NCBI GenBank assembly: GCA_963422645.2
Contig: CAXXVO010000014.1
Span: 64,001-128,000 of the forward strand
Origin: Alphaproteobacteria bacterium
GTDB taxonomy: Bacteria; Pseudomonadota; Alphaproteobacteria; UBA828
Direction of reading: 5' to 3'
Length of the DNA stretch: 64,000 nt
Below, piece after piece: positions 47,008 to 64,000 of the stretch (position 1 is its first letter; each line of letters opens with the position of its first letter). The position numbers and the translations under genes are program-made. A model generated the notes under the pieces. It was not told where the DNA came from, made no database searches, and saw nothing but the letters and a program-made list of their open reading frames with translations.

Positions 47008-47161
47008 GGGGCATTCTCCTGGTTGGCTGGCGATGCCATGCAACCGCCAGCATTGAGGACCGTTCGACTCGCGAGTAGCATATACTCAATTCCGATCATT
47101 CGCATTGGCCGGTGGCCGACAGGTGCGCCCGCCAACACACTCCACACGGACTCGGCTCACG

Positions 47162-49513: not shown

Positions 49514-50572
49514 CTAAGGGAAGAGCGGCGCCTGCTCGAGCCCGGTCGTCTCCGGCAGGGCGTGCATCAGGTTCATGTTCTGGATCGCCTGGCCGGAAGC
49601 GCCCTTGACCAGATTGTCGATAGCCGAGATCAGAATCGCGCGTCCCTCGATCCGGTCGTCGAAGACCCCGATGAGGCAGTGGTTGGAGCCCCGCACGTGC
49701 CGCGTCGCCGGCGCCGCGCCCGTCGGCAGCACGCGTACGAAGGGCTCGTCCGCGTAGCGCCGGGCGAGGGCCTCGCGCAGGGCATCGGCACCCGCACGGC
49801 TGCGCACGTAGATCGTCGCCAGGATGCCCCGGTTCATGGGTATGAGATGGGGCGTGAAATTGACCCGCACCGGCGCGCCGGCTGCGGCCGAGAGCCCCTG
49901 CTCGATCTCGGGCGCGTGGCGGTGGGCGGCGATGCCGTAGGCGTGCACGCCCTCGCCGACCTCGGCGAAGAGGCTTCCCTGTTTGGCTTCGCGCCCTGCG
50001 CCGGAGACTCCAGACTTGGCGTCAATGATGATGTCGTCGTTCTCGATCAGCCCGTCTTCGAGCAGCGGCGCCAGCGGCAGCTGCGCGGAGGTGGGGTAGC
50101 ACCCGGGGTTCGCCACCAGCCGGGCGCTGCGGACCTCATCGCGGGCGAGCTCCGTCAGCCCGTAAACCGCCTCGGCCTGAAGCGCCACGGCGCCGTGCGC
50201 CCGCCCGTACCATTCGGCATAGACCTCGGGGTCTTCGAGCCGGAAGTCTGCCGAAAGGTCCACCACCTTCAGATGGTCGGGGAGCGCGGCGATGACCTCC
50301 TGCGTGGTGCCGTGAGGCAGGCAGCAGAAGACCGCGTCGAGCGAATCCCAGGCGGCGTCCTCGATCTTGACGAGATCGGGAAAGCCCGCGCCGTGGAGAT
50401 GGGGAAAGACTGCGCCCAGGCTCTGGCCCGCGCGGCGTTCGGCGGTGAGCAAGCCGACCGAGAAGCCGTCGTGAAGCGTCAGCAGGCGCAGCAGCTCGCC
50501 GCCCGTATAGCCGCTCGCGCCCAGCACGCCGACGCGCGCGGTGTTGCCCGTACCGGAGGGGGAGGGGCTCAT
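49514..50572 (-). CDS. argC: N-acetyl-gamma-glutamyl-phosphate reductase
   Basis: GASGYTGGEL, DLSADFRL, ANPGCYPT, SGVSGAGR, HRHAPEI, DNLVKGASGQA. Confidence 0.97.
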   Translation of the reverse strand: MSPSPSGTGNTARVGVLGASGYTGGELLRLLTLHDGFSVGLLTAERRAGQSLGAVFPHLHGAGFPDLVKIEDAAWDSLDAVFCCLPHGTTQEVIAALPDHLKVVDLSADFRLEDPEVYAEWYGRAHGAVALQAEAVYGLTELARDEVRSARLVANPGCYPTSAQLPLAPLLEDGLIENDDIIIDAKSGVSGAGREAKQGSLFAEVGEGVHAYGIAAHRHAPEIEQGLSAAAGAPVRVNFTPHLIPMNRGILATIYVRSRAGADALREALARRYADEPFVRVLPTGAAPATRHVRGSNHCLIGVFDDRIEGRAILISAIDNLVKGASGQAIQNMNLMHALPETTGLEQAPLFP

Positions 50573-50645
50573 TGGAGGTCTGCCGTGATCGCTGGAGCCG
50601 GAGCGGGGGACGCACATCAGCGCAGCCGCGCCGGCGACGCCCGGG

Positions 50646-51128
50646 CTAGCGTTTGGAGAACTGGAAGCTGCGGCGGGCCTTGCGCTTGCCGTACTTCTTG
50701 CGCTCCACGACGCGGCTGTCGCGGGTGAGGAAGCCGCCGGACTTGAGCATCTTGCGCAGTTCCGGCTCGCGCGCCGCAAGCGCCCGGCTGATGCCGTGAC
50801 GAAGTGCCCCGGCCTGGCCCGAGAGGCCACCGCCCTTGACCGTGCAGATGACGTCGTACTGGGTGCGGCGCCCGACCAGCTCCGCCGGCTGATTGATGAT
50901 CATCTGGAGCGCCGGGCGGGCGAAGTAGTTCTCCACCGGGCGCTTGTTGACCGTGATCGTGCCGATACCGGGCCGCAGCCACACGCGCGCAACCGCATCC
51001 TTGCGCTTGCCGGTCGAGTAGGTGCGGCCGAGCCGGTCGATCTGCGGTTCCGGCTCGATGTCGGCGTCGGGCCGGGCGACCTCGCCGAGCTCGGCAAGGC
51101 TGGTCAGGGTCTTCGGCTCGTCAGCCAC
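50646..51128 (-). CDS. rpsI: 30S ribosomal protein S9
   Basis: [38 protein letters not shown]. Confidence 0.98.
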
Positions 51129-51594
51129 GGAGCGTGCTCCTCGCGTTCTTCGGATTCATCGCGGCGATGTCGAGAGGCTCAGGCTGCTGCGCCTCGTGCG
51201 GATGGTCCGAGCCAGGATAGACCTTGAGGTTCGCCATCTGCTGGCGGCCCAAGGGGCCCTTGGGGATCATCCGCTGCACCGCCTTGATCACCACCTCCTC
51301 GGGCCGCTTGCTGCCGAGGATGCGGGCCGCCGTGCGGGTCTTGAGGCCGCCGGGATATCCGGTGTGGTGATGGTAGAGCTTGTCTTCCCGCTTGCGCCCG
51401 GTGAGCCGGACCTTCCCGGCATTGACGATGATGATGTTGTCGCCGCAATCCATGTGCGGGGTGTAGCTTGGCTTGTGCTTGCCGCGCAGACGGGTCGCGA
51501 CGATGCTGGCGAGCCGACCGAGGACGATGTCCTCGGCGTCTACCAGCATCCACTTCTTCTCAATCGTGGCAGGCGTTGCCGAGAAGGTTTTCAT
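51121..51594 (-). CDS. rplM: 50S ribosomal protein L13
   Basis: [37 protein letters not shown]; alternative GTG start at 51603. Confidence 0.98.
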
Positions 51595-51874
51595 TTCGCT
51601 CACGACGATGGGATATGACGTAACGGCGCACGGACCCGTTCGGCTCTCGCCAGCCAGCGCGCCGCCGGGAGTATGCCACAGGACGTCGCCCAGTCAACGG
51701 CAGCGTTGCGGGGCCTGGGGCGTTCGCCTCGTTGGCCGACTGCACCGCGCAGCCCCTCACTCTTGGGAGAGATCCCTGCCGAGCGGCCTTTACGACAGTG
51801 ACGGGCTCGGAGACCCTGGCTTCTAGCCCACGTCTCACTCTTGAATGCCCCGGCTGGGAGCGAAGAAAACGAAG

Positions 51875-51891: not shown

Positions 51892-51939
51892 TCACTTATC
51901 CAGCATCGTTGTTTGATGACGTCGAGTGGCGGGGGTGTG

Positions 51940-52680
51940 ATGTCGATCTTGATTTCAGGCGGAACCAAGGGCATCGGGCGGGCCATCGGTCTCGCCTTCG
52001 CCGAGCCCGGCGTCGACGTGTTTCTCAACTATCACGGCGATGACGATGCGGCGGACGAGGCCCGGACACTGGTCGACTCGAAGGGTGCGCGCTGTCATCT
52101 GATCAAGCAGGATGTCTCGACGCCGGGGGGCTGCCGGGCTGTGCTCGCCCAAGTGGCGGAGCGCGTCGACCGGCTCGACCAGCTCGTGCACTGCGCGGTC
52201 CGCGCCATTCCGAAGCCCGCGCTGGACTGCGACCCGGACGATTTCACCGCCGCGGTCAATCTCAACGGCACGGCGCTGCTCTATCTCGTGCAGGCGGCCG
52301 ATCCGCTGCTCCAGCGCGGCAGCACGGTGTTCTTTCTCACCAGCCGGGGCGGGCGCACCGTGGTCCCCAACTACGCCGCCATCGGCATCGCCAAGGCGCT
52401 GGCGGAATCTTTGGTGCGCTATCTCGCGAGCGAGCTTGCGCCGCGCGGCGTGCGAATCAACAGCGTCGCTCCCGGCGTGGTAGATACGGATGCGGTGCGG
52501 GCGTTGTTCGGCGACCAGGCGAGCGAGATCGTGAAGCACGCCGCCGAGACGAACCCGAGCGGACGCGGCGTGCGGGACGAGGACTACACCAGCGTGATCC
52601 GCTTCCTCGCGAGTCCGGAGGCCGCGTTCGTCCAGGGGCAAACGATTTTCGTCAACGGCGGCCACTACCTGGCGGCGTAG
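51940..52680 (+). CDS. SDR oxidoreductase, FabL/FabI-like enoyl reductase type
   Basis: SGGTKGIG, YAAIGIAK (Yx6K), LVRYLASEL.PRGVRINSVAPG, GQTIFVNGG. Confidence 0.9.
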   Translation: MSILISGGTKGIGRAIGLAFAEPGVDVFLNYHGDDDAADEARTLVDSKGARCHLIKQDVSTPGGCRAVLAQVAERVDRLDQLVHCAVRAIPKPALDCDPDDFTAAVNLNGTALLYLVQAADPLLQRGSTVFFLTSRGGRTVVPNYAAIGIAKALAESLVRYLASELAPRGVRINSVAPGVVDTDAVRALFGDQASEIVKHAAETNPSGRGVRDEDYTSVIRFLASPEAAFVQGQTIFVNGGHYLAA

Positions 52681-52689
52681 GCGGCGCCC

Positions 52690-53859
52690 TCAACCCAGCC
52701 GCTCGATCAGCGTCGCGTTGGCCATGCCGCCGCTCTCGCACATGGTCTGAAGGCCGAGGCGGCCGCCGCTCTCCTCCAGGCTCCCGATCAGGCTGGCCGT
52801 GAGCCGGCCACCCGATGCGCCGACGGGATGGCCGAAGGCGATGGCCCCGCCGTTGACGTTGACGCGGTCGAGGTCGGCACCCAGCGTCTCCGCCCAGGCC
52901 AGCACCACCGAGGCGAAGGCTTCGTTGACCTCGAAGCGGTCGATCTCGCCCAAGGTCCGGCCGCTTCGCGCCAGCAGCTTTTCCGTTGCCGGGATGATCC
53001 CCGTCAGCATGAGCAGGGGGTCGTCGCCCGAGACCGCGAAATGCGTGATCGCCGCACGCGGCGTCAGGCCCAGCCGCTGCACCGACTCCTCCGACGCGAT
53101 CAGCAGTGCCGAGGCGCCGTCGGAGACCTGGCTCGAATTCCCCGCCGTCACCACCCAGCCGATCTCGGGGAAGCGCTCGGCCTTGCCGGCATCCACGAAC
53201 GCGGGCTCCAGCGCGGCGAGCTTTTCCGCACTCGTATCGGGGCGGATGCCTTCGTCCGTCGAGGCCCCGTCGATGGGCAGGATGTCGCGCGCGAAGACGC
53301 CGCGCTCCTCGGCCGCCGCCGCGCGCCGGTGCGAGCGCAGCGCGTAGGCATCGAGGTCGGCGCGCGAGAGCCCCCAGCGGGCCGAGATCAGCTCGGCGGA
53401 AATGCCCTGGTGCACCAGACCGTCGGCGTAGCGCCGGCGCAGCATCGGCCCGAGATGGTCCTTGCCGCGCCGGTTGCTGCCCATCGGCACGCGGCTCATC
53501 ATCTCGACCCCGCAAGCGATGACGAGGTCGTAGGCCCCCGCCATCACGCCCTGCGCCCCAAAATCCATCGCCTGCTGCGCCGAGCCGCACTTGCGGTCGA
53601 TGGTGACGGCGGGAACGGTCTCGGGAAAGCCCGCCGCGAGCCAAGCCTGGCGGCCGATGTTGGCGGCCTGCTCGCCCGCCTGGATGACGCAGCCCGCGAT
53701 CACGTCGTCGACCGCGCCGGGATCGACGCCGGTGCGCGCGACCAGACCCTCGAGCGTCATCGCAAGCAGGTCGACCGGATGAACCGCGCTCAGCGCACCA
53801 TCCGCCCGCCCCTTGGCGAAGGGAGTGCGGACCACATCGATGATGAGGGCGCGGCGCAT
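52690..53859 (-). CDS. Thiolase (acetyl-CoA C-acyltransferase)
   Basis: RTPF, DRKCGSAQQA (Cys), NEAF, GHPVGASG, TMCESGG (Cys). Confidence 0.95.
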   Translation of the reverse strand: MRRALIIDVVRTPFAKGRADGALSAVHPVDLLAMTLEGLVARTGVDPGAVDDVIAGCVIQAGEQAANIGRQAWLAAGFPETVPAVTIDRKCGSAQQAMDFGAQGVMAGAYDLVIACGVEMMSRVPMGSNRRGKDHLGPMLRRRYADGLVHQGISAELISARWGLSRADLDAYALRSHRRAAAAEERGVFARDILPIDGASTDEGIRPDTSAEKLAALEPAFVDAGKAERFPEIGWVVTAGNSSQVSDGASALLIASEESVQRLGLTPRAAITHFAVSGDDPLLMLTGIIPATEKLLARSGRTLGEIDRFEVNEAFASVVLAWAETLGADLDRVNVNGGAIAFGHPVGASGGRLTASLIGSLEESGGRLGLQTMCESGGMANATLIERLG

Positions 53860-53860
53860 C

Positions 53861-55321
53861 CTAGCCGGCACGACGGAGCGAAACCGAGAGATTGGCGCTT
53901 TCCACCTCCACGTACTTCGAGGTGGAAAGCGCCATCAACTTGCGCACGTGTTCGAGCTCCGGCGTGGAGAGAATCGGGAAGTCGCGCTTCACCGGGCCCG
54001 CGGCCCGCATCCTCTCCAGGTCCGCCGCCGGGACCAGGGCGCGCAGGATCAGCTCGTCGTCATCGTCGGTGCCGTGGCGCTTGCGAAGCTCGGCCAAGGT
54101 GGGCTGCTCCGGCGGCTCGGCCAGCACCTCCTTGGCACGGGGCGCGGCCATGATCCGGTCCAACACGTCCGGATCGATGGGCGCTACCGGCTCGCCGTAG
54201 TGCCCGCCGGCATACTGGATCACCTCGTCCGGAATCACGGCGTAGCGCTCGCCGGTGACAATGTTGAGCACAGCTAGGGTGCCGACGAGCTGGGAGAAGG
54301 GCGTCGCCATGCCGGGGTAGCCCAGCTCGCGGCGCACGCGGCCGGTCTCCTCCAGCACGTCGTCCAGCCGGTCCGCCATCTCGTGCTGGACGAGCTGCGC
54401 CTTCAGCGTCCCCATCATGCCGCCCGGCACCTGGTGGTGCACGGAGAAGAGGTCGTATTCCTGCGGCACGCCCACGGGGAAGCCCGCCGCCGTGGCGACG
54501 CCCTCGAAGTGCTCCGCGATCTGCGGCAGGAGCGATCGATCGATATTGTGGGTATGGCCGAGATGCTCGACGTTCCGTGTCATCACCTCGACCGAGGGGA
54601 CGGAAGGGCCGTTCGCCATCGGCCCGCAGGCCGTGTGCAGGATACGGATGCCGAGCTCGATCGCCTCGACGTAGGCGCGGCCGGAGGCGCCCAGGAGGTT
54701 ATTCGAGTGGAACTCGATGGGCTTGCCGCGCGCGTTCGCCATGATGGCCGGCACCAGCGTGCGCATGCGGTCCGGCTCCAGCACGCCGCCCGTGTCGTAG
54801 AGCAGGAGCGTGTCGATATCCGGCGAGGCCGAGAGCCTGTCCGCTTTGTCGGCGTAGTAGTCGTCGGTGTGCACCGGGCTCAGCGTGAACATGATGGCGC
54901 CTGCCACCTCCGCGCCGAACTCCTTGGCCACCCTGGCGAGGCGGTGTGTCTTGTCGATGTTGAAGAGCACGTCGTAGATCCAAAAACTGCGGCAGCCGTG
55001 CACGCAGAGCTGCCGCATCCAGACGTCCATCAGCGCATCGGGCGTGACGCCGAAGGTGACGCTCGCATTGCTGCGCATGCCGCCCCGGATCGTGCTCTTG
55101 GGCATGGCGTCGACCAGGAGGTCGAGCCCCTCCCACGGATTCTCGCGGCATTGGCGGATCAGGACCTCGAAGAGGCTCGAGCCGGTGAGGTCCACCACCC
55201 GATAGCCGACCCGGTCGATCACCGGTGCAATGGGGAGCGCCATGCCGGCCTGCATGCGCATGCCCCACAGGCTCTGCTGTCCGTCCCGCATGGTCTCGTC
55301 GAGGAATTCGATGTGCGCCAT
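53861..55321 (-). CDS. Stand-alone carboxyltransferase subunit (PycB/OadA/transcarboxylase-5S-like TIM barrel, no biotin domain)
   Basis: DETMRDGQQSLW, ENPWE, TLSPVHTDDYY, HQVPGGM, ELGYP.MATPFSQLVG; metal HxH reads FHSNN and the usual KD-Lys position reads LYDTGG. Confidence 0.88.
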   Translation of the reverse strand: MAHIEFLDETMRDGQQSLWGMRMQAGMALPIAPVIDRVGYRVVDLTGSSLFEVLIRQCRENPWEGLDLLVDAMPKSTIRGGMRSNASVTFGVTPDALMDVWMRQLCVHGCRSFWIYDVLFNIDKTHRLARVAKEFGAEVAGAIMFTLSPVHTDDYYADKADRLSASPDIDTLLLYDTGGVLEPDRMRTLVPAIMANARGKPIEFHSNNLLGASGRAYVEAIELGIRILHTACGPMANGPSVPSVEVMTRNVEHLGHTHNIDRSLLPQIAEHFEGVATAAGFPVGVPQEYDLFSVHHQVPGGMMGTLKAQLVQHEMADRLDDVLEETGRVRRELGYPGMATPFSQLVGTLAVLNIVTGERYAVIPDEVIQYAGGHYGEPVAPIDPDVLDRIMAAPRAKEVLAEPPEQPTLAELRKRHGTDDDDELILRALVPAADLERMRAAGPVKRDFPILSTPELEHVRKLMALSTSKYVEVESANLSVSLRRAG

Positions 55322-55332
55322 CGTCGCTCCGC

Positions 55333-56691
55333 TCAGTGCATCAGCGAGGGCATGAAGACGTCCTCCAGCCAGCGCGTGTTGAGCCTGTTAGCCGTGAAGT
55401 CAGGGTGCCGCACCAAGTGCGCCTGGAACGCGAGGTTGGTGTCGATCCCGCCGATCTGAAATCGGTCCAGCGCGCCGCCCATGCGCTCCACCGCTTCGGC
55501 GCGGTCGCCAGCGCGCACGATCAGCTTCGCGATCATGCTGTCGTAGAAGGGAGACACGAAGGCACCCGGGCGGCAGTGGCTGTCTATGCGAATGCCCTGT
55601 CCCTCCGGTGCGCACCAGGCGTCGATCAGACCGGGCGAGGGCGCGAAGTCCCGCTCCGGCGCCTCGGCGTTGATCCGGCATTCGATGGCGTGGCCGGCAA
55701 GCGCGATGTCTTCCTGCGCGACGCTGAGCCCGCCGCCGCCCGCGATGCGCAACTGCTCCTCGATCAGGTCGATGCCGGCGACCTCCTCGGTCACGGGATG
55801 CTCGACCTGGATGCGGACATTGGCTTCGATGAAATAGGCCTCGCCGCGGTCAACGTCGTAGAGGAACTCGACCGTGCCGGCGCTCCGATAGTCGAGGTGC
55901 CGGGCGAGGCGGCAGGCGGCGTCGTGAATCTGCGTGCGCGCTTCGGCCGGCAGCGCCGCCGCCGGCGCTTCCTCCACCATCTTCTGGAAGCGCCGCTGCA
56001 CAGAGCAATCCCGCTCGCCGAAATGGACGACCGCGCCGTCGCCGTCGCCCATGATCTGCACCTCAACATGGCGCGCGTCCTCGACGAAGCGCTCAACGAA
56101 GAGCGTACCGTCGCCAAAGGCGGCCTTGGCCTCCGTCGATGCACGCTCGAAGCCATCGTCGATGTCCGCATCCCTTCGTGCGACGAACATGCCGCGCCCG
56201 CCGCCACCTGCGCTGGCCTTCATCAGCACCGGGTAGCCGACGGAGGCGGCGAAGGAGCGGGCCTCGGCTGCCGAATGGATACGGTCGGAGCCGGGGACGA
56301 TGGGCACGCCCGCTTCGATCGCGATGGTGCGGGCGGTGAGCTTGTCGCCGAGCCGCTCGATGGTCTCGGCCCGCGGCCCGACGAACGCGATTCCCTCCCG
56401 CTCGCACAGGCCGGCGAGAGCCGGGGACTCGGAGAGGAAGCCGTAGCCCGGATGCAGTCCGTCGCAGGCGGTGGCCTCGGCCGCATGCACAAGCAGGTTG
56501 GCGTTGAGGTAGCTCTCGCGCGCCGGCGCCGGCCCCAGCACCACCGCGCGGTCCGCGAGCTCCGCCGCCAAGCCCTCGCGGTCCGCGTCGGAGACCCCGA
56601 CAACGCACTCGAGCCCGAGCGCGCGGCAGGCGCTGACGATGCGCACGGCGATCTCCCCCCGGTTGGCGACGAAGACGCGCGAGAGGGCCAT
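55333..56691 (-). CDS. Biotin carboxylase subunit
   Basis: ANRGEIAVRI, HPGYGFLSE, KASAGGGGRGM, ERDCSVQRRFQK, RIQVEHPVTE, ECRINAE, YDSMIAK. Confidence 0.96.
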   Translation of the reverse strand: MALSRVFVANRGEIAVRIVSACRALGLECVVGVSDADREGLAAELADRAVVLGPAPARESYLNANLLVHAAEATACDGLHPGYGFLSESPALAGLCEREGIAFVGPRAETIERLGDKLTARTIAIEAGVPIVPGSDRIHSAAEARSFAASVGYPVLMKASAGGGGRGMFVARRDADIDDGFERASTEAKAAFGDGTLFVERFVEDARHVEVQIMGDGDGAVVHFGERDCSVQRRFQKMVEEAPAAALPAEARTQIHDAACRLARHLDYRSAGTVEFLYDVDRGEAYFIEANVRIQVEHPVTEEVAGIDLIEEQLRIAGGGGLSVAQEDIALAGHAIECRINAEAPERDFAPSPGLIDAWCAPEGQGIRIDSHCRPGAFVSPFYDSMIAKLIVRAGDRAEAVERMGGALDRFQIGGIDTNLAFQAHLVRHPDFTANRLNTRWLEDVFMPSLMH

Positions 56692-57161
56692 CACGCCGTC
56701 TCGGCCGCTTCGGCCTCCGGCTCGACCAGAAAGAGCGGTACGCCAAACTCCACCATCTCGCCGTCCTCGACGCAGGCCTTGGCGATCCGGCCGCTGATCC
56801 CGGCCCGCACCGGCGTGAACAGCTTCATGACCTCGATCAGACAAACCTCGGTTGCCTCGCTGACCTGCTGGCCGACCTCCACGTAGGGCGCGATCCCCGG
56901 CTTGGGCGCGCGGTAGAAGGTGCCGAGATTGGGCGCCGTGATCGGCACAAGCCCATCGGCCGGCGCCGCTTCGGCCGGATCGGGAGGGGCCTGCTCCTCC
57001 GAGGCTACGCCAGCCTCCGTCGCCGCCGATCCGAGTGCCGCCGCATCCGCATCCTTCGAGAGCACCAGCTTCAGGCCGTCGGTCTCGAGCCGGAGCTCGT
57101 GCCAGTCCGAGCGGTCGAAGATGCGGATCAGCGCCTCGACCTCCTTGCGGTCGACGGTCAT
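56691..57161 (-). CDS. Biotin carboxyl carrier protein
   Basis: APNLGTFYRAP, IEVMKL biotinylation site, VEFGVPLF. Confidence 0.94.
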   Translation of the reverse strand: MTVDRKEVEALIRIFDRSDWHELRLETDGLKLVLSKDADAAALGSAATEAGVASEEQAPPDPAEAAPADGLVPITAPNLGTFYRAPKPGIAPYVEVGQQVSEATEVCLIEVMKLFTPVRAGISGRIAKACVEDGEMVEFGVPLFLVEPEAEAAETA

Positions 57162-58918
57162 GCAGCGGTCTCCGCGCGCGCGGCGGCACAGGCCGCAAGC
57201 AGTGCCGGCAGGGCGTGGCGCACGACGATGAAATCGAGACCGGCGGCGACGGCGGCCGCGACACCCGCATCGCTGGCGAGCGCGCCGCCCTTTGCGCCGG
57301 GAGTCCCCTCGAGCAGCGCGGGCAAGCGCTCCGGGTCCGCACCGCCCGGCAAGCGGTCGAGATCGACCGCGCCCTCCGGCGCCGCGTCGCCCGCGCGATA
57401 GACCGCCATCGGCGCGGCCGCGCGGGCCCATGACGTGATCTGGCGGAGGTAGGGATCGTCCGTCTCCGAAGGAACGCTCACCGGCAATGCGCCATCGAAC
57501 ACCTTCCCCGCCTTGCCGTCCACCGTCACCTCCCTGCCCGCAAGCGCTGCGTCCACGCCTTCGCCGCAGCCGACGACGCAGGGAACGCCGAGGGAGCGGC
57601 TTACCACGGCGGCGTGGGAGGTCGCACCCCCGGTCGCCGTCACGACAGCGCGGGCGGTGACCATGCCGTGCACGTCGTCCGGGCTGGTGGTCGGGCGCAC
57701 CAGCACAACGTCCTCGCCGGACGTGCCGCGCGCCTCGGCCGCATCGGCGTCCAGCACGACTTTGCCGATGCCGACACCGGGGCTCGCTCCCTCTCCCTCG
57801 GCGAGCAGGGAGGCGTTCTCCCCGGCGCCGTCGTCAAGGCGGGGCATGAGCAGCATGCGGACCTGGGCCGCGCTGACGCGGGCGAGTGCCTCGTCCGTGG
57901 AGATCCTTCCCTCATTCACCAGGTCGACCGCGACGCGCATGGCCGCGGCGGGAGCCCGTGCGGCGGTGCGGGTCTGCAACAGGTAGAGCGCGCCCTCTTG
58001 TACCGAGAACTCGATGTCCTGCACATCCCGGTTCAGCGCTTCGAGCCGGCGCGCGGCGTCGATCAGTGCGGCGTGCGCCTCCGGCAGGGAAGACGCCAGC
58101 GCATCCAGTCCCTGCGGCGTCCGCTGGCCGGAGACCACGTCCTCCCCCTGGGCGCGGGCGAGATACTCGCCGTAAGGCGCAGGCGCCCCGGTGAGCGGGT
58201 TGCGGCTGAAGAGCACACCCGTTCCGCTGTTCTCGCTGAGGTTGCCGAACACCATGGCTTGAACCGTGACGGCGGTCCCTGCGTCGTCCGGAAGCCCGTG
58301 ATGCCGGCGATATCGCTTCGCGCGCCGTCCGTTCCAGGAGTCGAAGACGGCGCGGACCGCGCCGAGAAGCTGATCGGCCGGCGCGTCCGGCACGCTACCC
58401 GCCGCCCCCGTCTCCGCAACGGTTGCGCGCCATGTCGCTGGGGTCCCTTGGGAAGGCAGCCCGTCGATCGCCGCCTTGAGCACGATGCGCGCGTACATCT
58501 CGTGGAAGCGCCGATGCGTGTCGCGGGCGAAGACAGCGTCGCCGCTCTCGGCTGCGAGCGCTGCCTCGATTTCCTCGTCGATCCCGAGATTGAGCACCGT
58601 ATCCAGCATACCCGGCATGCTGACGTCGGCGCCGGAGCGAACGGCCAGCAGCAAGGGGCGTTCGTGCGCGCCGAAGCGGCGCCCGGTCTCCGCCTCCAGC
58701 ATGGCGATGCCGGCGTGAAGCTCGTCGACGAGGCCGTCCGGCAGCGCGCCTTCGGCGAGATAGGCGCGGCAGGCCTCGGTCGTCGCCACGAAGGCGGGCG
58801 GCACCGGCAGGACTGCGTGGCGCATGACGGCGATGCCCCACGCCTTGCCGCCGATCAGCGCGCGGTCGGGCTGCGCCGCGCCGTCGAGGAAGAGCACCCA
58901 GCGGCCGACAGCACCCAT
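57158..58918 (-). CDS. PPDK-like protein: ATP-grasp plus phospho-His domain, lacking the C-terminal pyruvate-binding barrel
   Basis: IGGKA, VPPAFV, VRSGA.VSMPGMLDTVLNLG, VQAMVFGN, SGTGV, QGEDVVSG, DIEF, LLQTR, GGATSHAAVVSR; only 586 aa. Confidence 0.9.
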   Translation of the reverse strand: MGAVGRWVLFLDGAAQPDRALIGGKAWGIAVMRHAVLPVPPAFVATTEACRAYLAEGALPDGLVDELHAGIAMLEAETGRRFGAHERPLLLAVRSGADVSMPGMLDTVLNLGIDEEIEAALAAESGDAVFARDTHRRFHEMYARIVLKAAIDGLPSQGTPATWRATVAETGAAGSVPDAPADQLLGAVRAVFDSWNGRRAKRYRRHHGLPDDAGTAVTVQAMVFGNLSENSGTGVLFSRNPLTGAPAPYGEYLARAQGEDVVSGQRTPQGLDALASSLPEAHAALIDAARRLEALNRDVQDIEFSVQEGALYLLQTRTAARAPAAAMRVAVDLVNEGRISTDEALARVSAAQVRMLLMPRLDDGAGENASLLAEGEGASPGVGIGKVVLDADAAEARGTSGEDVVLVRPTTSPDDVHGMVTARAVVTATGGATSHAAVVSRSLGVPCVVGCGEGVDAALAGREVTVDGKAGKVFDGALPVSVPSETDDPYLRQITSWARAAAPMAVYRAGDAAPEGAVDLDRLPGGADPERLPALLEGTPGAKGGALASDAGVAAAVAAGLDFIVVRHALPALLAACAAARAETAA

Positions 58919-58920
58919 GC

Positions 58921-59523
58921 CTATTCCTGCCGCGTGCGGCCGAGGATTCGCAGCAGGTCTTCGTGAAGCTCGAACCACACCGTGTGATAGGACTCGATCC
59001 GTGCGCCGCTGACCCACTCGATAGCGCCGTCCTCGGCCTTCTCCAGCGCCGCTTCCAGCTTGCACGCGTAAATCGCGAGGCGCGGCAGGCCGGCGCTCAG
59101 TTGCTGGAGGATCGCCTCCGCCCGCTCGTGCAGGGCGCCCAGACGATCGATCAGCCTATCGTCATAGTCCTTGTTGGTGTGATCGTTCAGCACGCTCTCG
59201 CCGTCGATCTCGATGGTCTGCCACGCGGTCATCAGCGCCTTGAGGTCTCGATTGATCGCCTCGAAGCGCTCGCAGGCGGAGGCGAACGCCGGGTCGGCCC
59301 GTTGCGCGGCAAAGAGCCTGGAATAGGCGCCGTCGAGGGCCACGCGCGCGACAGGCGTCAGGGAATACGCCTCGCCGGCGCGCAGGGCGCGGCCCTTGGC
59401 CACCGCCTCGTCGAGCGCCGCCTGCACCTCGGTCTCGTCGAGTCCGACTGCTTTGGCGATCGCCGCGGCGTCCGCATGCTTCTTGATCGCGAGGCCGTGG
59501 AGGACGAGATAGGTGTCGGTCAT
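58921..59523 (-). CDS. Conserved helical protein with N-terminal winged-HTH (partner of truncated PPDK; Rv1126c-like by recall)
   Basis: N-terminal HTH-like segment; WQ...NDHTNKDYD...SYHTVWFELHEDL motif; 2 bp from the PPDK-like start. Confidence 0.75.
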   Translation of the reverse strand: MTDTYLVLHGLAIKKHADAAAIAKAVGLDETEVQAALDEAVAKGRALRAGEAYSLTPVARVALDGAYSRLFAAQRADPAFASACERFEAINRDLKALMTAWQTIEIDGESVLNDHTNKDYDDRLIDRLGALHERAEAILQQLSAGLPRLAIYACKLEAALEKAEDGAIEWVSGARIESYHTVWFELHEDLLRILGRTRQE

Positions 59524-59526
59524 GGC

Positions 59527-61020
59527 TCAGGCACTCTCCCGCTCGGCCGTCGTGTCGGCCGAGGCGAGGACGCGGTCTCGGACCGCGCGGCGCAGGAGCT
59601 TGCCTGCCCCGCTCTTGGGCAGCGTGTCCCAGATCTCGACGCTCTTCGGGCACTTGTAGCCGGCGAGCCTCTCGCGACAGAACTGCCGCACTGCCTCCGG
59701 GTCGAGACCCGGCCGCCCGGCAACGACGGCATGGACGCGATCGCCCCACTTCTCGTCGGGCAGTCCCACCACGGCGGCCTCGACGACGCCCTCGTGGGCC
59801 AGCAGCACATCCTCGATCTCGCGCGGGTAGACGTTGTAGCCGCCGCTGATGAGCATGTCGTTCTTGCGGTCGAGAATGTAGAAGAAGCCGTCCTCGTCGA
59901 TGCGGCCGATGTCGCCGGTATGGAGCCAGCCGTTGCGGAAGGCCCTGGCGGTCTCCTCCGGGCGCTTCCAGTAACGGGCCATGAGCTGGGTCCCGCGGCA
60001 GACGATTTCGCCCCGCTCGCCGGTCGGCACCGGCTTGTCGTCCTCGTCGAAGACCGCCACGTCCGCGGTGGTGTAGGGCCGCCCGCACGAGCCCACGCGG
60101 TCGTGATCCTCCGGCCCGAGATAGGTAATCACCATGGGGGACTCCGCCTGGCCGTAGGTCTGGGCGAAGACCGGGCCGAAACGGGCCATGGCGCGCTCCA
60201 GCAGGCTCGGCGCGATGGGCGATGCGCCGTAGCAGATGCGTTTGAAGCGGAGGTCCGCCGTCTCCAGCGCGGGCTCCTCCATGATCATCGCCAGCATGGT
60301 CGGCACCAGAAAGGTGTGGGTCGCGCGCGCCTGCGCAGCCATGGCGATGAAGCCGACGGCGTCGAAGTGCGGCATGATCCACTGGTGCACGCCCCGTACC
60401 AGCGCGGGCAGGAAGAAGGCGCCACTCGCGTGCGCGATGGGGGCGGCGTGGAGGAAGCGGTCGCCCGACGCGAGGTCGGGCACCAGGTCCATGAGAAAGG
60501 CCGAGAGCTCCGCAGTCTCGCCCAGCGTGGTGAGCGTGACCGCCTTGGGCGCGCCGGTGGTCCCGCCCGTGAAGCCCAGGCGATAGGGCGCCTCAAGCTC
60601 GCGGTCCACGCAGCAGACGCCGGGTGGTCCCTCGTCGATGAGCCGGCGGAGCGCGTCGGCGCCGTAGACCATGGCCGCGCCGAAGCCCTTGGCGCCCTCG
60701 ACATCGTCGTGGATGAGGCCGCGGGCGCCGCTGTCGCCCAGCTTGTAGCGATGGTCCGCCGCCGTCTCGCGCACGTTGAGCGAGACCCGCACGAGGCCGG
60801 ACTTGGCGATCGCGTAGTAGGCGATCAGGCAATCGATCCCGTTGGGCAGCAGCACGCCGACGCGGTCGCCCAGCTCGAAGCCTTCCGCGAGCAGCGCGTT
60901 GCCGAGCCGGTCCGTCGCCGCGTCGAAGGCGCGGAAGCTCAGCGTGCGCGTCCCTTCGGTCAGCGCCGGTGCCTCGCCGTACATGAGCGCCGCGCGCCGG
61001 ATGTACTCGCCGATCTGCAT
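59527..61020 (-). CDS. Acyl/aryl-CoA ligase (ANL superfamily)
   Basis: FTGGTTGAPK, YGQAE, WLHTGD, DRKNDMLISGGYNVYPREIE, LPKSGAGK. Confidence 0.95.
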   Translation of the reverse strand: MQIGEYIRRAALMYGEAPALTEGTRTLSFRAFDAATDRLGNALLAEGFELGDRVGVLLPNGIDCLIAYYAIAKSGLVRVSLNVRETAADHRYKLGDSGARGLIHDDVEGAKGFGAAMVYGADALRRLIDEGPPGVCCVDRELEAPYRLGFTGGTTGAPKAVTLTTLGETAELSAFLMDLVPDLASGDRFLHAAPIAHASGAFFLPALVRGVHQWIMPHFDAVGFIAMAAQARATHTFLVPTMLAMIMEEPALETADLRFKRICYGASPIAPSLLERAMARFGPVFAQTYGQAESPMVITYLGPEDHDRVGSCGRPYTTADVAVFDEDDKPVPTGERGEIVCRGTQLMARYWKRPEETARAFRNGWLHTGDIGRIDEDGFFYILDRKNDMLISGGYNVYPREIEDVLLAHEGVVEAAVVGLPDEKWGDRVHAVVAGRPGLDPEAVRQFCRERLAGYKCPKSVEIWDTLPKSGAGKLLRRAVRDRVLASADTTAERESA

Positions 61021-61060
61021 GAGTTCAGGCCGCCTGGACGTGTGGGAGCGGGGCGCGTCT

Positions 61061-62614
61061 CTAGTCGCGGGGGAGCGCCGCCAGCTCCGCAGCGCCGAGC
61101 GATGCCCCGCGACCCTGGATCTTGCGCGCCCGCTCCTGCTCCAAATGGTACATCTCGTCCGCGCGCGCCGTGTCGTGGTTGTACTTGAGCCAGGTCTCGT
61201 CCAGGAAACGATAGCGGTCGGACTGCGGCGCGAAGGCGCGGACCCGCGCGTTGTACTCCTCCAGCGTCAGCACGCCCTGGCTCGTGCGGTAGCGGTCGGC
61301 CTTGGCCGGGAGCGTGGTGGCGCCGGGATAGACCGGGCCGCAAGTGGGCACGTACTCCTCGCCGTCCAGGATCGCGTAAGGGATCGGCGTATACATGCGG
61401 GTCGGGCCGTTGCCGTGCTGCATCATGCTGTAGGACGAAAGGCGATGGCTCGCCAGCGTCAGCAGTCCCACCAACTCGCCCAGGCAGTCGCGGCTGAACT
61501 CGTCGTTGAGCAGGGGGCGGAAGCGCTCCGCCCGCTCGTCGATCAGCATCCAGTCCTCTCGGGCGTAGACGCCGGCGACGTGGGCGAGGTCCTTGCAGAT
61601 GCCGAAGTAGGTGAGCGCGCCGGCGTCGAGCATCTGGTCGCGGCTCCAACCGGCGATGCGCCTCCAGAGCCGCGCCGTCGCTTCCTTGAAGAGCCCGTCC
61701 AGCGTGCGGAATATCTCGGTCAGGGTCTCGCGACTCTCCATCCCCACCGGAACGTGCCCCTCGGTGAGCGGGTCGGAGGTGTAGAGGCCGACGCCGATGA
61801 TACTCTCCGCCCTGAACTCAGGCTCGGATTCGAAGCTTCCCCAGTCGTCGACCAGGTAGAAGTGGCAGTCCTTCACCAGCATCGGGACGGTGAGGTTGTT
61901 GTAGGGAATGTCGGCCGCCACGTCGTCGAGCCAGGGGAAGTCGCCTTCGCCGAGGTCCATGAAGTCGCGGACGATCATCTCCACGCCGTCGGCGACTTTG
62001 TAGGGCCCGGTGTTGAGCAGACTGATGCGGCTCTCGCAGCTCACCAGGAAGCCGTATTGCGCCGCAGAAGCCATGAACTGGGTCGCCGCGCTGTGCAGCG
62101 CATCGCCGGCCTCGCAGCCGTAGGCGTCGGACTCGAAGACCTGAAGCCGCCGCTCCGGCAGGATCTGGCAGCGGTGGCCGAACTCCTTATTGGTGATGTG
62201 GCCGTCGTTACGGTGCCAGGAGAGTTGCAGGCGTTTCCAGAAGTCCATCAGGTAGACGAGGTCTTCCACGGCGTCCTGCGGGCGCAGAAGGCCCATATTG
62301 ATGAGCCACTCGCGGCCGAGCAGGTAGAAGCCCGGCATTCCCCAGCCCATGGCGCTCTTGCCCGGCGGGCGTCCCTCCCGAGCGCGATCGCCGATCTCTT
62401 CCGCCGTCATCACGCTCTCCACCTTTCGCAAGAGCGAGGGGTAGCGGTAGAAGGCGTTGAGGTAGGAGAGCAGCATGTAGGGCGGCACCGGAAAGAGCTT
62501 GGATTCCTGCACGGTGCGCGTGACGCAGAGCCAGTAGGTCTCGTCGGTGAAGGTTTGCAGGAGGTTGTTGGTCTCCAGCAGCTGAGCGTAGGAGAGGCGA
62601 GGCGCGCCGACCAT
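61061..62614 (-). CDS. Hypothetical protein, 517 aa (no family recognised)
   Basis: Long ORF with natural composition and GC3 bias from ATG 62614 (TGATG overlap with upstream stop); lies within the operon. Confidence 0.85.
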   Translation of the reverse strand: MVGAPRLSYAQLLETNNLLQTFTDETYWLCVTRTVQESKLFPVPPYMLLSYLNAFYRYPSLLRKVESVMTAEEIGDRAREGRPPGKSAMGWGMPGFYLLGREWLINMGLLRPQDAVEDLVYLMDFWKRLQLSWHRNDGHITNKEFGHRCQILPERRLQVFESDAYGCEAGDALHSAATQFMASAAQYGFLVSCESRISLLNTGPYKVADGVEMIVRDFMDLGEGDFPWLDDVAADIPYNNLTVPMLVKDCHFYLVDDWGSFESEPEFRAESIIGVGLYTSDPLTEGHVPVGMESRETLTEIFRTLDGLFKEATARLWRRIAGWSRDQMLDAGALTYFGICKDLAHVAGVYAREDWMLIDERAERFRPLLNDEFSRDCLGELVGLLTLASHRLSSYSMMQHGNGPTRMYTPIPYAILDGEEYVPTCGPVYPGATTLPAKADRYRTSQGVLTLEEYNARVRAFAPQSDRYRFLDETWLKYNHDTARADEMYHLEQERARKIQGRGASLGAAELAALPRD

Positions 62615-63366
62615 CACGAAGCCTCCTGGGCCAGCTTCCAGATGTTGGCGGTCACTTCCTCGCCCTTCTGATAGGCCTCCGCCGTTTTCGCCGCCGCGGC
62701 GGTCTCCATCTCCAGGCGCTGACCTTCCTTGATCCCGGTGATCTTGGCGTTCATGAGGCAGGGAATACCGTATTCCCGCGCGAGAATCCCGAGGTGGGAA
62801 CGCACGGTGCCGCCCATGCAGATGATGCCGGTGAATTGCTCCAGGATCGGCGCGGTGAGGGTGCCGCCGGAATCGTCGATGATGGCGATGGTCTCGGGCG
62901 GCACGCCGTCGCCGAGATAGCGCATGACCTGGCTGCTGGAGCGGACGTAGCGCGCGGTGCCTACGGTATTCTCGGCGACGCGCATCACGTTGTCGCCGAC
63001 GCCGCAAAGCGCCCTGCCCTCTGCATCGGCCTCGCCGGAGGGCGCGTCCGGGTGCTCCATGGTCCAGTCGGGGTCGTCACCCAGGATGCCTTCGGCGGGC
63101 TTATAGGCCTCGGGCCGTTCGTTCACCGAAATCACCGCCGAGAAGTCGTAGCGGTGGCCGGCGTCGAGCAGCTTCCTTTCGATCTCCTCGAAATCGGCCG
63201 CGGTGATCAGATCGTAGGACTTGTCGAAGACGAAACTGTTCCAGTCGACCCCGCTCTCGCCCAGGCGGCGCCTCACCAGGTCCTTGATCGCGCTGTGGAA
63301 GGCCTCGACGGTGGGCGAGTGTGCCTGATCGCCGTACTTGTCCGTGTCCACGTAAAGCTTGGCCAC
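62614..63366 (-). CDS. Protein with C-terminal PEP-utilising phospho-His (swivel) domain
   Basis: GIICMGGTVRSHLGILAREYGIPC matches the phospho-His swivel motif; acidic N-terminal domain; RBS GGGGGAG before GTG. Confidence 0.87.
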   Translation of the reverse strand: MAKLYVDTDKYGDQAHSPTVEAFHSAIKDLVRRRLGESGVDWNSFVFDKSYDLITAADFEEIERKLLDAGHRYDFSAVISVNERPEAYKPAEGILGDDPDWTMEHPDAPSGEADAEGRALCGVGDNVMRVAENTVGTARYVRSSSQVMRYLGDGVPPETIAIIDDSGGTLTAPILEQFTGIICMGGTVRSHLGILAREYGIPCLMNAKITGIKEGQRLEMETAAAAKTAEAYQKGEEVTANIWKLAQEAS

Positions 63367-63513: not shown

Positions 63514-64000
63514 ATGCCAGCGGAGAGCGATCTCTCCCACCACCGCATCCTGGTCACCAATGACGACGGCATCCATGCCAGGGGGCTGAAAATTCTCGAG
63601 GCGATCGCGCGGAGCCTGTCCGACGATGTCTGGGTCGTCGCGCCTGATCACGAGCGGAGCGGCGCCGGCCATTCCATCTCGATGCACACGCCGATCCGCC
63701 TGCGCCAGATGGGGGAGAAGCGCTACGCGGTGGACGGTACGCCCACCGACTGTGCGCTCATGGCGATCCACGAGCTGATGACCGAAAGCCCGCCCACGGT
63801 CCTCCTCTCCGGCATCAATCGCGGCGCCAATCTCGCGGATGACATGACCTATTCGGGCACCATCGCCGCCGCGATGGAGGGGACCCTGCTCGGCATCCGC
63901 TCGATCGCGCTCAGCCAGGTGTTCACCATGGGCGGTGAGGCGCTCTGGGCCACGGCGGAGGCCTTCGCGCCGGACGTGATCCAAACCCTCATGCGCCTGC
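63514..64000 (+). CDS. surE: 5'/3'-nucleotidase SurE (3'-truncated by window edge)
   Basis: RILVTNDDGIHARGL, VVAPDHERSGAGHSIS, DGTPTDC, SGINRGANL, YSGTIAAAMEG. Confidence 0.96.
   Translation, partial: MPAESDLSHHRILVTNDDGIHARGLKILEAIARSLSDDVWVVAPDHERSGAGHSISMHTPIRLRQMGEKRYAVDGTPTDCALMAIHELMTESPPTVLLSGINRGANLADDMTYSGTIAAAMEGTLLGIRSIALSQVFTMGGEALWATAEAFAPDVIQTLMRL

Follow-up and report, generated by a model that had tools for sequence, protein, structure and literature searches.

A conserved nine-gene operon of Alpha- and Gammaproteobacteria as a candidate route for kinase-assisted biotin carboxylation with a truncated pyruvate phosphate dikinase

Biotin carboxylation of ketones with the aid of a kinase has been known only since 2022, and so far for lignin-derived phenolic ketones. 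The kinases of the Hpe system of Rhodococcus rhodochrous GD02 and the Acv system of Sphingobium sp. SYK-6, HpeHI and AcvAB, are PpsAB-like two-component dikinases (PMC9618137; PMC12167813); in dikinases of this kind, the phosphoryl group passes via a histidine to a small molecule (PMC12167813). HpeCBA carboxylates the phosphorylated ketone only, HpeD and AcvF are HAD phosphatases, HpeE is a ligase, and HpeF is a hydrolase (PMC9618137). In Novosphingobium aromaticivorans, the unrelated UPF0261 kinase MarK stands ahead of AcvCDEF (PMC12624787), and the Hpe, Acv, and MarK systems together show that kinase types are interchangeable before this kind of carboxylase (PMC9618137; bioRxiv 2022.04.28.489975; PMC12624787). 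The p-ethylphenol route of Aromatoleum comprises a dehydrogenase, the HacABC carboxylase, the ligase AcsA1, and the predicted thiolase TioL1 (PMC10715001). The Apc and Acx carboxylases activate inert ketones as proposed phosphoenol intermediates (PMC5214803). Here we analyzed a stretch of 64,000 nt (hereafter the window; contig CAXXVO010000014.1, positions 64,001 to 128,000) from an alphaproteobacterium of the UBA828 lineage, which contains at 52690-63366 an operon of nine genes, g1 to g9, that combines a kinase-like module with a biotin carboxylase, a CoA ligase, and a thiolase. The nine genes are:

62614-63366, minus strand: g1, 250 aa, phosphoenolpyruvate (PEP)-utilizers swivel domain (PF00391, 32.9 bits, residues 158-218)
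61061-62614, minus strand: g2, 517 aa, without a Pfam, NCBIfam, or PDB match
59527-61020, minus strand: g3, AMP-forming acyl-CoA ligase, FadD/MenE-like (PF00501, 223 bits, and PF13193)
58921-59523, minus strand: g4, 200-aa helical protein, no family above threshold
57158-58918, minus strand: g5, 586 aa, truncated pyruvate phosphate dikinase (PPDK) with PF01326 (PPDK_N) and PF00391 (PEP-utilizers)
56691-57161, minus strand: g6, biotin carboxyl carrier protein (BCCP; PF00364, 55.5 bits)
55333-56691, minus strand: g7, biotin carboxylase (BC; PF02786, PF02785, PF00289)
53861-55321, minus strand: g8, 486-aa free carboxyltransferase, PYC_OADA/HMGL-like (PF02436, 96 bits), no biotinyl domain
52690-53871, minus strand: g9, thiolase (PF00108 and PF02803; TIGR01930, 433.5 bits, cutoff 240.55)

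All nine genes lie on the minus strand, and their coordinates, from the listing of open reading frames (ORFs) and start-codon mapping, are as first noted. From g1 to g9, the junctions are a 1-nt overlap, gaps of 40, 3, and 2 nt, overlaps of 4 nt and 1 nt, an 11-nt gap, and an 11-nt overlap. Nothing resembling a terminator turned up in a consensus scan of the operon's coding (minus) strand. An earlier note on this DNA, made by a model from the sequence alone, had described nine co-oriented genes of this order and these sizes with gaps of at most 40 bp; the coordinates match, and each of its nine domain labels agrees with Pfam and NCBIfam. The G+C content of the region, 65-73%, gives rise to many long spurious ORFs that overlap the real genes. 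With regard to individual families, g3 is best matched by NF004837 (383 bits, under its cutoff of 476), g7 scores 597.3 bits against NF006367 (cutoff 597), and g6 scores 107.2 bits against TIGR00531 (cutoff 115.2) and contains EVMKL, which we take to be a biotinylation-type motif.

In its overall composition, the operon resembles the Hpe, Acv, MarK-AcvCDEF, and Xcc/Hac (Aromatoleum aromaticum EbN1) systems, all of which join an ATP-dependent kinase to a three-subunit biotin carboxylase. It also shares with them a PycB-like transferase without a biotinyl domain and a CoA ligase followed by a C-C cleaving enzyme, which in EbN1 is the predicted thiolase. In contrast to the kinases of the Hpe, Acv, and MarK systems, that of the operon is neither PpsAB-like nor of the UPF0261 type (Pfam detected no UPF0261 domain in the nine proteins); where Hpe and Acv use a two-component dikinase, it would consist of the PPDK-derived g5, a separate histidine carrier, and the 517-aa and 200-aa proteins. 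Unlike Hpe and Acv, the nine proteins include no HAD domain, and the ligase is FadD/MenE-like rather than acetoacetyl-CoA-synthetase-like. In agreement with the earlier note, the operon is not one-to-one orthologous to the Acv/Hpe operons, since g5 is PPDK-derived and g2 has no detectable homology to AcvA/HpeH-like proteins. A likeness to Acx and Apc lies in their proposed chemistry, the ATP-dependent activation of a ketone and its carboxylation to a beta-keto acid; the proteins are unrelated, Acx and Apc use no biotin, and no hydantoinase A/B-type subunit was found among the nine proteins (Pfam, NCBIfam). Our literature search found no paper describing this gene combination, with supplements and most subscription journals outside its coverage; apart from unrelated work, it yielded only the papers on Hpe, Acv, MarK, HpeHI, Apc, and Acx.

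On balance, we think that the operon, together with an adjacent gene for a short-chain dehydrogenase/reductase (SDR), probably encodes a catabolic route for a carbonyl compound, in which kinase-assisted biotin carboxylation is followed by CoA activation and thiolysis. The substrate is most likely a methyl ketone, and the pathway is most likely related to, yet distinct from, the acetovanillone pathways. The activities in the following steps we infer; gene content, order, conservation, fusions, family relations, and motif changes are observed and are presented below. The swivel histidine of g5 would be autophosphorylated with ATP, and the phosphoryl group would be relayed via the swivel histidine of g1 to the substrate held by g2 and g4. 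The BC g7, the BCCP g6, and the carboxyltransferase g8 would then carboxylate the phosphorylated ketone at the carbon beside the carbonyl, giving a beta-keto acid that g3 would turn into its CoA thioester and g9 would cleave by thiolysis to an acyl-CoA and acetyl-CoA. The phosphorylation might take one of two forms. A remote hydroxyl could carry the phosphate, which would serve as an anionic handle in the manner of Hpe and Acv and later be removed by SurE or Y_phosphatase3, both encoded near the operon; alternatively, an enol phosphate could be formed whose phosphate leaves during carboxylation. Acetone, acetol, acetoin, levulinate, and acetoacetate were considered as substrates, as were aminoacetone derived from dehydrocarnitine, deoxy-ketosugars, and isoprenoid methyl ketones; none was adopted for want of evidence, and a search of the literature on isoprenoid ketones yielded nothing relevant.

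In order to assess the conservation of the operon, g2 was used as a query with one genome per species, which gave 79 loci, chiefly in metagenome-assembled genomes (MAGs) of Alpha- and Gammaproteobacteria. All nine proteins were run against these loci by tblastn with an identity cut of 40%; 27 loci were too short for judging, 2 lacked a full g2 match, and 50 were judged. We found the complete nine-gene set in identical order and strand in 39 of the 50, and each junction measured at most 60 nt in 29-39 of these 39. The co-occurrence in other genomes that the earlier note had proposed to check is therefore borne out, and the nine-gene arrangement is a conserved unit and not due to chance. Among the 33 full loci with a g2 identity below 80%, median identity ranged from 47% for the BCCP to 75% for the carboxyltransferase, the highest of the nine. 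One further locus (L057) carries the set except for a BCCP that falls under the identity cut, five of the 50 carry g1-g2-g4 alone, and another five a partial or rearranged operon (L008, L024, L031, L032, L048). L048 (1000-6700) has no g4-g7; its g1, g2, and g3 run straight into the genes for the transferase and the thiolase. The g1 orthologue of L004 (9249-9995) has an internal stop codon in its tblastn frame, possibly a sequencing error or a sign of a pseudogene.

The distribution of the operon is patchy. Its marker g2 is present in 10 of 20 other species of the genus, in 12 of 24 of the family, and in none of 16 genomes of other families, and none of the 400 other genomes in a sample of the phylum has a g8 orthologue; such a pattern fits an accessory catabolic trait. 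Five carriers of g2 are cultured, namely Roseiarcus fermentans, Pseudooceanicola atlanticus, Chachezhania sediminis, Antarcticimicrobium luteum, and Rhodosalinus halophilus. The g8-type transferase is abundant in metagenomes, where 3257 proteins are similar to g8 at E<=1e-10 and the best 120 clusters listed are all at least 72% identical to it. A sponge metatranscriptome library (X20) contains short contigs that are 90-95% like parts of the operon and come from relatives; we set these aside as proof of expression because they derive from relatives and DNA carry-over is possible.

The PDB chains nearest to the carboxyltransferase g8, 2nx9 (OadA), 5ks8 (PycB), and 1rqb (5S transcarboxylase subunit), belong to the same fold family as g8, which stays under every NCBIfam cutoff (best NF006761, 308 bits versus 402). 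In the phylum sample, four free transferases are 35-41% identical to g8, and OadA/PycB-type proteins with biotinyl tails 29-33%. Three of the four, which we call Acv-type by gene content only (L081-L083), share 37-41% identity with g8, and each of them is encoded beside a BCCP and a 612-619-aa protein with a C-terminal His domain. Of these loci, only L081 showed a weak ATP-grasp match to g5. In L082, Pfam identified a 348-aa PPDK_N (PpsB-like) protein and a HAD phosphatase, in agreement with the published gene content of acvABCDEF (bioRxiv 2022.04.28.489975). In a quick maximum-likelihood (ML) tree of 61 rows, the 48 rows of the g8 family form one clade (SH-aLRT 100), which is sister to the three Acv-type rows (99) and then to the fourth transferase, that of L084. 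Across the longest branch (100) lie the rows of OadA/PycB and of the genome's own pyruvate carboxylase (PYC), a separate protein of 1154 aa. Branches of about 2 changes per column stand on either side of the split between g8 and the Acv-type rows, and on this tree g8 is placed beside and not inside these. The clustering with true PycB that would have counted against the earlier note's reading is not seen on this tree. Every characterized carboxylase of the sister clade requires a kinase for its substrate (PMC9618137).

The metal site distinguishes g8 from all of these relatives. The Lys of xxKDxxG and the HxH motif are kept in all OadA/PycB/PYC, Acv-type, and L084 rows, whereas the g8 family has Tyr (LLYDTxG) in place of this Lys and HxN (FHxNN) in place of HxH in every row covering the columns. 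The g8 family retains the Arg-Asp, Gln, and Thr positions as well as the Arg of LLRGQN, which also occurs in the OadA/PycB/PYC rows but is absent from the three Acv-type rows. By analogy with pyruvate carboxylase, we take the Lys, in its carbamylated form, and the two His to be metal ligands, and the Arg, Gln, and Thr to serve in pyruvate binding and proton transfer. Judged by its sequence, g8 is a distinct subfamily with an altered metal site. It is no member of PycB/OadA, as it has neither the Asp-Lys-HxH metal site nor a biotinyl domain and lies below the family cutoffs; it differs from PycB and OadA in forming a separate clade without the carbamylated Lys and the second His. In the cluster of L084 (L084:3858-10443), a TRAP transporter is followed by a BCCP, a BC, and a 497-aa transferase that is 35% identical to g8; no kinase gene was seen there. 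This transferase retains Lys and HxH in their canonical form and is placed by the tree apart from the g8 family as well as from the Acv-type rows. The Acv-type transferase match at G212:C1:3158950-3160410 contains one in-frame TGA, which may reflect a sequencing error or a pseudogene.

On the kinase side, g5 belongs to the truncated PPDK family NF004531 (708.9 bits, cutoff 456), of which Rv1127c (VadK) is presumably also a member. Its similarity to PPDK structures (E 4.5e-114) extends to around position 538 of their 874 residues, and it carries the canonical His motif GGATSHAAV. Like VadK, it consists of an ATP-grasp and a swivel phospho-His domain without a PEP/pyruvate domain, and it has an extra C-terminal tail relative to VadK. 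The genome encodes a separate PPDK of 897 aa that is 46% identical to g5 over residues 19-498, and g5 matches the PpsB-like protein region of L081 with 28% identity over 177 residues only. VadK autophosphorylates His422 with ATP and Mg, binds methylcitrate-cycle enzymes, and is described as a regulatory kinase (PMC13400623); unlike this actinobacterial regulator of the methylcitrate cycle, g5 is encoded inside a carboxylase operon and beside a second His carrier. This carrier, g1, is composed of an unknown N-terminal half and a swivel domain, whose His191, within GGTxRSH, does not vary among 26 aligned sequences. We propose that g5 is the ATP-dependent phosphoryl donor and g1 the module-specific phosphoryl carrier.

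The separation of ATP-grasp and swivel-His components on different polypeptides is shared with HpeHI, phenylphosphate synthase, and CreHI, and we list rifampin phosphotransferase here as well. The arrangement differs in that HpeHI-type dikinases have the His domain C-terminal to a rifampin-binding-like substrate domain in one protein, whereas the His carrier of the operon is a separate 250-aa protein (N-terminal in fused relatives), its ATP-grasp protein has a His domain of its own, and the presumed substrate subunit is unrelated.

At E<=1e-3, a set of 1.84 billion protein representatives contains 430 relatives of this presumed substrate subunit, g2, many of these relatives being fragments. 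The protein matched no PDB entry by sequence, and the best hit of a profile search (E 1.2) was a chance match. An AcvA/PpsA-like substrate protein and a diverged PEP/pyruvate domain were both ruled out by hhalign (probability 0.35%, and 0.18% versus the PPDK C-terminal domain, respectively). Nine residues of g2 are invariant across close and distant relatives (R33, Y46, P59, G100, R101, R196, Y205, P265, G348), and we infer that such a set of Arg, Tyr, Gly, and Pro would suit an anion-binding site. The smaller g4 gave only matches of E~0.7 in a PDB profile search, to the winged-helix part of O-methyltransferases; its invariant residues are H9, H115, H180, H187, E185, E188, and D189.

We conclude that g1, g2, and g4 belong together because of gene fusions, the adjacency of g2 and g4 where g3 is missing, and a separate g1-g2-g4 cluster. 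In L056, g2 and g4 are fused in one 729-aa ORF with g4 at the C-terminus of g2, and two database proteins of 726 and 728 aa (P0001, P0003) are probably further fusions of this kind; in two distant relatives (P0057, P0069), a PEP-utilizers domain is N-terminal to a g2-like domain. The CoA ligase g3 is missing from L031 and L032, and there g2 adjoins g4. The separate cluster occurs in uncultured Gammaproteobacteria (L056, L058, L059, L060, L062, L063, L065; for example L059:8183-13584). It runs in the order Y_phosphatase3, paralogues of g1, g2, and g4 (53-60% identical to those of the window), SDR, and NUDIX hydrolase, and it adjoins an MlaFEDC operon. By contig names, it is found in MAGs that also hold the full operon. 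In five such MAGs searched with g5, exactly one intact copy was present in three, one had g5 split over two contig ends, and none was found in one incomplete MAG. A single g5 in genomes with two g1-g2-g4 sets suggests that g5 is a shared ATP-dependent donor and g1-g2-g4 are substrate-specific modules, and we propose g2 as the substrate-binding, phosphoryl-accepting subunit of the kinase. Direct loading of g1 by the ATP-grasp domain of g5 is as possible as a relay from a shared donor.

Metagenome contigs (L093-L132) additionally encode proteins of about 500 aa in which a PEP-utilizers His domain is joined to a g2-like domain that is 29-34% identical to g2 residues ~14-357. In the 14 of these loci of at least 4 kb, tblastn found no ATP-grasp, carboxylase, or other operon gene nearby, and the neighbors across the 40 metagenome loci (ABC exporter, P450, malate/lactate dehydrogenase, amidohydrolase, and others) have nothing in common with the operon.

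A more specific form of the proposed pathway, which we offer tentatively and regard as possible but doubtful, is that g5, g1, g2, and g4 form a new type of "ketone dikinase" that makes the enol phosphate of a methyl ketone for direct use by g8. This would amount to a relay resembling the phosphotransferase system (PTS), in which a PPDK-derived donor hands the phosphoryl group over a dedicated His carrier to a catalytic subunit whose fold would be new, and the formation of an enol phosphate would parallel the action of PPDK on pyruvate. The carboxyltransferase, in which the carbamylated Lys and one His are lost, would release the phosphate as the enolate attacks carboxybiotin, and a phosphatase would be unnecessary.

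The surroundings of the operon add further genes to the system. The ORFs flanking the 39 full loci were clustered and representatives were searched with Pfam, with 9 kb examined. The neighborhood comprises the following, where ADC stands for acetoacetate decarboxylase:

51913..52680, plus strand, convergent with the operon: FabL-like SDR (PF13561, 189.7 bits)
33/39 full loci, immediately past the thiolase, co-directional in gammaproteobacterial loci: SDR homologue
27/39 full loci, mostly immediately before g1: second AMP-binding ligase
21/39 full loci, upstream, opposite strand: SurE
21/39 full loci, nearby: GntR/FCD regulator
17/39 full loci, upstream: SCPx-type thiolase
16/39 full loci, upstream: ADC-family gene
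15/39 full loci, upstream: Y_phosphatase3
14/39 full loci, upstream: sugar-type ABC binding protein
63514..64000, running off the window end, plus strand, divergent from g1: second SurE paralogue, 262 aa whole (PF01975, 198.8 bits)
L080:7429-10448 (contig C15, ~5.4-8.4 kb beyond the window), on the SurE strand, divergent from the operon: two adjacent ADC-family genes and an SDR

The SDR is a conserved tenth gene of the system; its best NCBIfam model is FabL NF005975 (191.7 bits, cutoff 328). Both the SDR genes and the ADC genes, two of which lie in the window's own genome, belong to this neighborhood and were absent from the earlier note. The SurE paralogue beside g1 scores 334.8 bits against NF001490 (cutoff 233). 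The genome's other SurE passes this cutoff too; it is 46% identical to the operon-side copy and is encoded on contig C14 in the usual serS-surE-LysM/M23 setting. Past the window end, SurE is followed by a Liv-type ABC transporter, the two ADC-family genes, and the other SDR. No aromatic-ring catabolic genes were seen beside the operon in the scanned ORFs.

Two of the contrasts that the earlier note had drawn between the operon and the Acv and Hpe systems fail. Its statement that the operon has no phosphatase holds for the nine genes, but the SurE paralogue stands divergently beside g1, and 22 of the 39 full loci encode SurE or Y_phosphatase3 in the 9 kb upstream. The classical thiolase is no distinguishing feature, as the Aromatoleum route is also predicted to use one (PMC10715001). 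The Acv/Hpe-like logic of kinase, ketone carboxylation, CoA ester, and thiolysis is still the best reading of the operon.

Several observations weigh against this reading. The main unexplained one is that a beta-keto-acid decarboxylase of the ADC family with the catalytic PKK motif is encoded beside a carboxylase that would form a beta-keto acid. With two of the four canonical metal ligands lost, g8 may work unlike the Acv-type transferases or not as a transferase. Its tree stems from a quick ML search of 61 rows with a midpoint root and only three Acv-type rows, whose label denotes gene content and not named reference sequences, with the HAD gene verified in L082 only. Both g2 and g4 lack a recognizable fold or family, and the substrate-binding role suggested for them draws on fusions and gene order only. 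We know of no precedent for a His-to-His transfer between two PEP-utilizers swivel domains. In addition, the SDR is closest to enoyl reductases and not to alcohol dehydrogenases, and the operon-side transporters vary by lineage (sugar-type, Liv-type, or none).

Among the alternatives, an unlikely one is that the kinase acts at another step. It could phosphorylate an alcohol, for elimination or isomerization, or the carboxylation product, or the biotin enzyme could be a decarboxylase or transcarboxylase acting on a beta-keto acid. The island would then be a larger pathway with transport, SDR, ADC, phosphatases, two ligases, and two thiolases, in an order unlike that of Hpe. The recurrence of the ADC gene, the second ligase, the SCPx-type thiolase, and Y_phosphatase3 is consistent with such a pathway, as is L025, where the genes for SDR, ADC, and Y_phosphatase3 share a strand and adjoin or overlap each other and the ADC aligns with solved acetoacetate decarboxylases and keeps the PKK motif. 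The altered metal site of g8 and a decarboxylase subunit, OadA, as its nearest solved relative point in the same direction. An OadA-type decarboxylase needs no BC, however, and a separate BC and BCCP, kept in 39 loci, point to ATP-dependent carboxylation. Moreover, the gammaproteobacterial loci keep the nine genes and the SDR but have no ADC, SurE, or Y_phosphatase3 gene within the 9 kb examined.

About equally improbable, in our view, is a regulatory function, in which a VadK-like g5 together with g1, g2, g4, and the phosphatases would form a protein phosphorelay that tunes the carboxylase, the ligase, or the thiolase, while the substrate stays unphosphorylated. The NF004531 score of g5 would agree with this, as would the interaction of VadK with methylcitrate-cycle enzymes (PMC13400623), the naming of Y_phosphatase3 as a protein tyrosine phosphatase family, and the weakly winged-helix-like N-terminus of g4. 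On the other hand, this would make regulators of four of the nine tightly coupled genes, which keep a fixed order in 39 loci; g1-g2-g4 beside a phosphatase, an SDR, and a NUDIX hydrolase without a carboxylase looks like a small-molecule module, and the characterized sister-clade carboxylases all need a substrate kinase (PMC9618137). It is very improbable that the operon serves the PEP-pyruvate-oxaloacetate node, with g5, g1, g2, and g4 as a multi-protein PPDK or PEP synthase and g6-g8 as a carboxylase of pyruvate or another 2-oxoacid: the 46% identity of g5 to the genome's PPDK and the Arg-Asp, Gln, Arg, and Thr positions that g8 keeps in common with the OadA/PycB/PYC rows (presumably for pyruvate binding) would suit it, but the genome already has its PPDK and PYC, g2 has no similarity to a PEP/pyruvate domain, g8 does not fall among the OadA/PycB/PYC rows and is without the carbamylated Lys and one of the His, the CoA ligase and thiolase have no role there, and the distribution is patchy even inside the genus.

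If kinase-assisted carboxylation is indeed the function of the operon, it would represent a third, unrelated kinase solution together with a new protein family, g2, and a transferase subfamily whose metal site is rebuilt. This type of pathway would then extend to sponge-associated Rhodospirillales, Roseiarcus, Paracoccaceae, and uncultured Gammaproteobacteria, in which no aromatic context was seen. Outside actinobacteria, a VadK-like truncated PPDK would for the first time have a set of metabolic partners, and there would be a model, open to testing, of how truncated PPDKs hand over their phosphoryl group. Ketone carboxylation is known from the physiology of marine denitrifiers in the older literature, and should the substrate be a simple alkyl or isoprenoid methyl ketone, enzymes could be named for carboxylation known from physiology. 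A ketone dikinase, in turn, would make the operon a biotin-dependent counterpart of the chemistry of acetone and acetophenone carboxylases in marine, freshwater, and soil Proteobacteria.

On the SDR side, the island is bounded by housekeeping genes:

47105-48952 (plus strand), 49514-50830 (minus strand), 50646-51603 (minus strand): rplM and rpsI (translations read), downstream of the SDR, followed by genes for a protein of the semialdehyde dehydrogenase family and a PhaC-type PHA synthase (Pfam)

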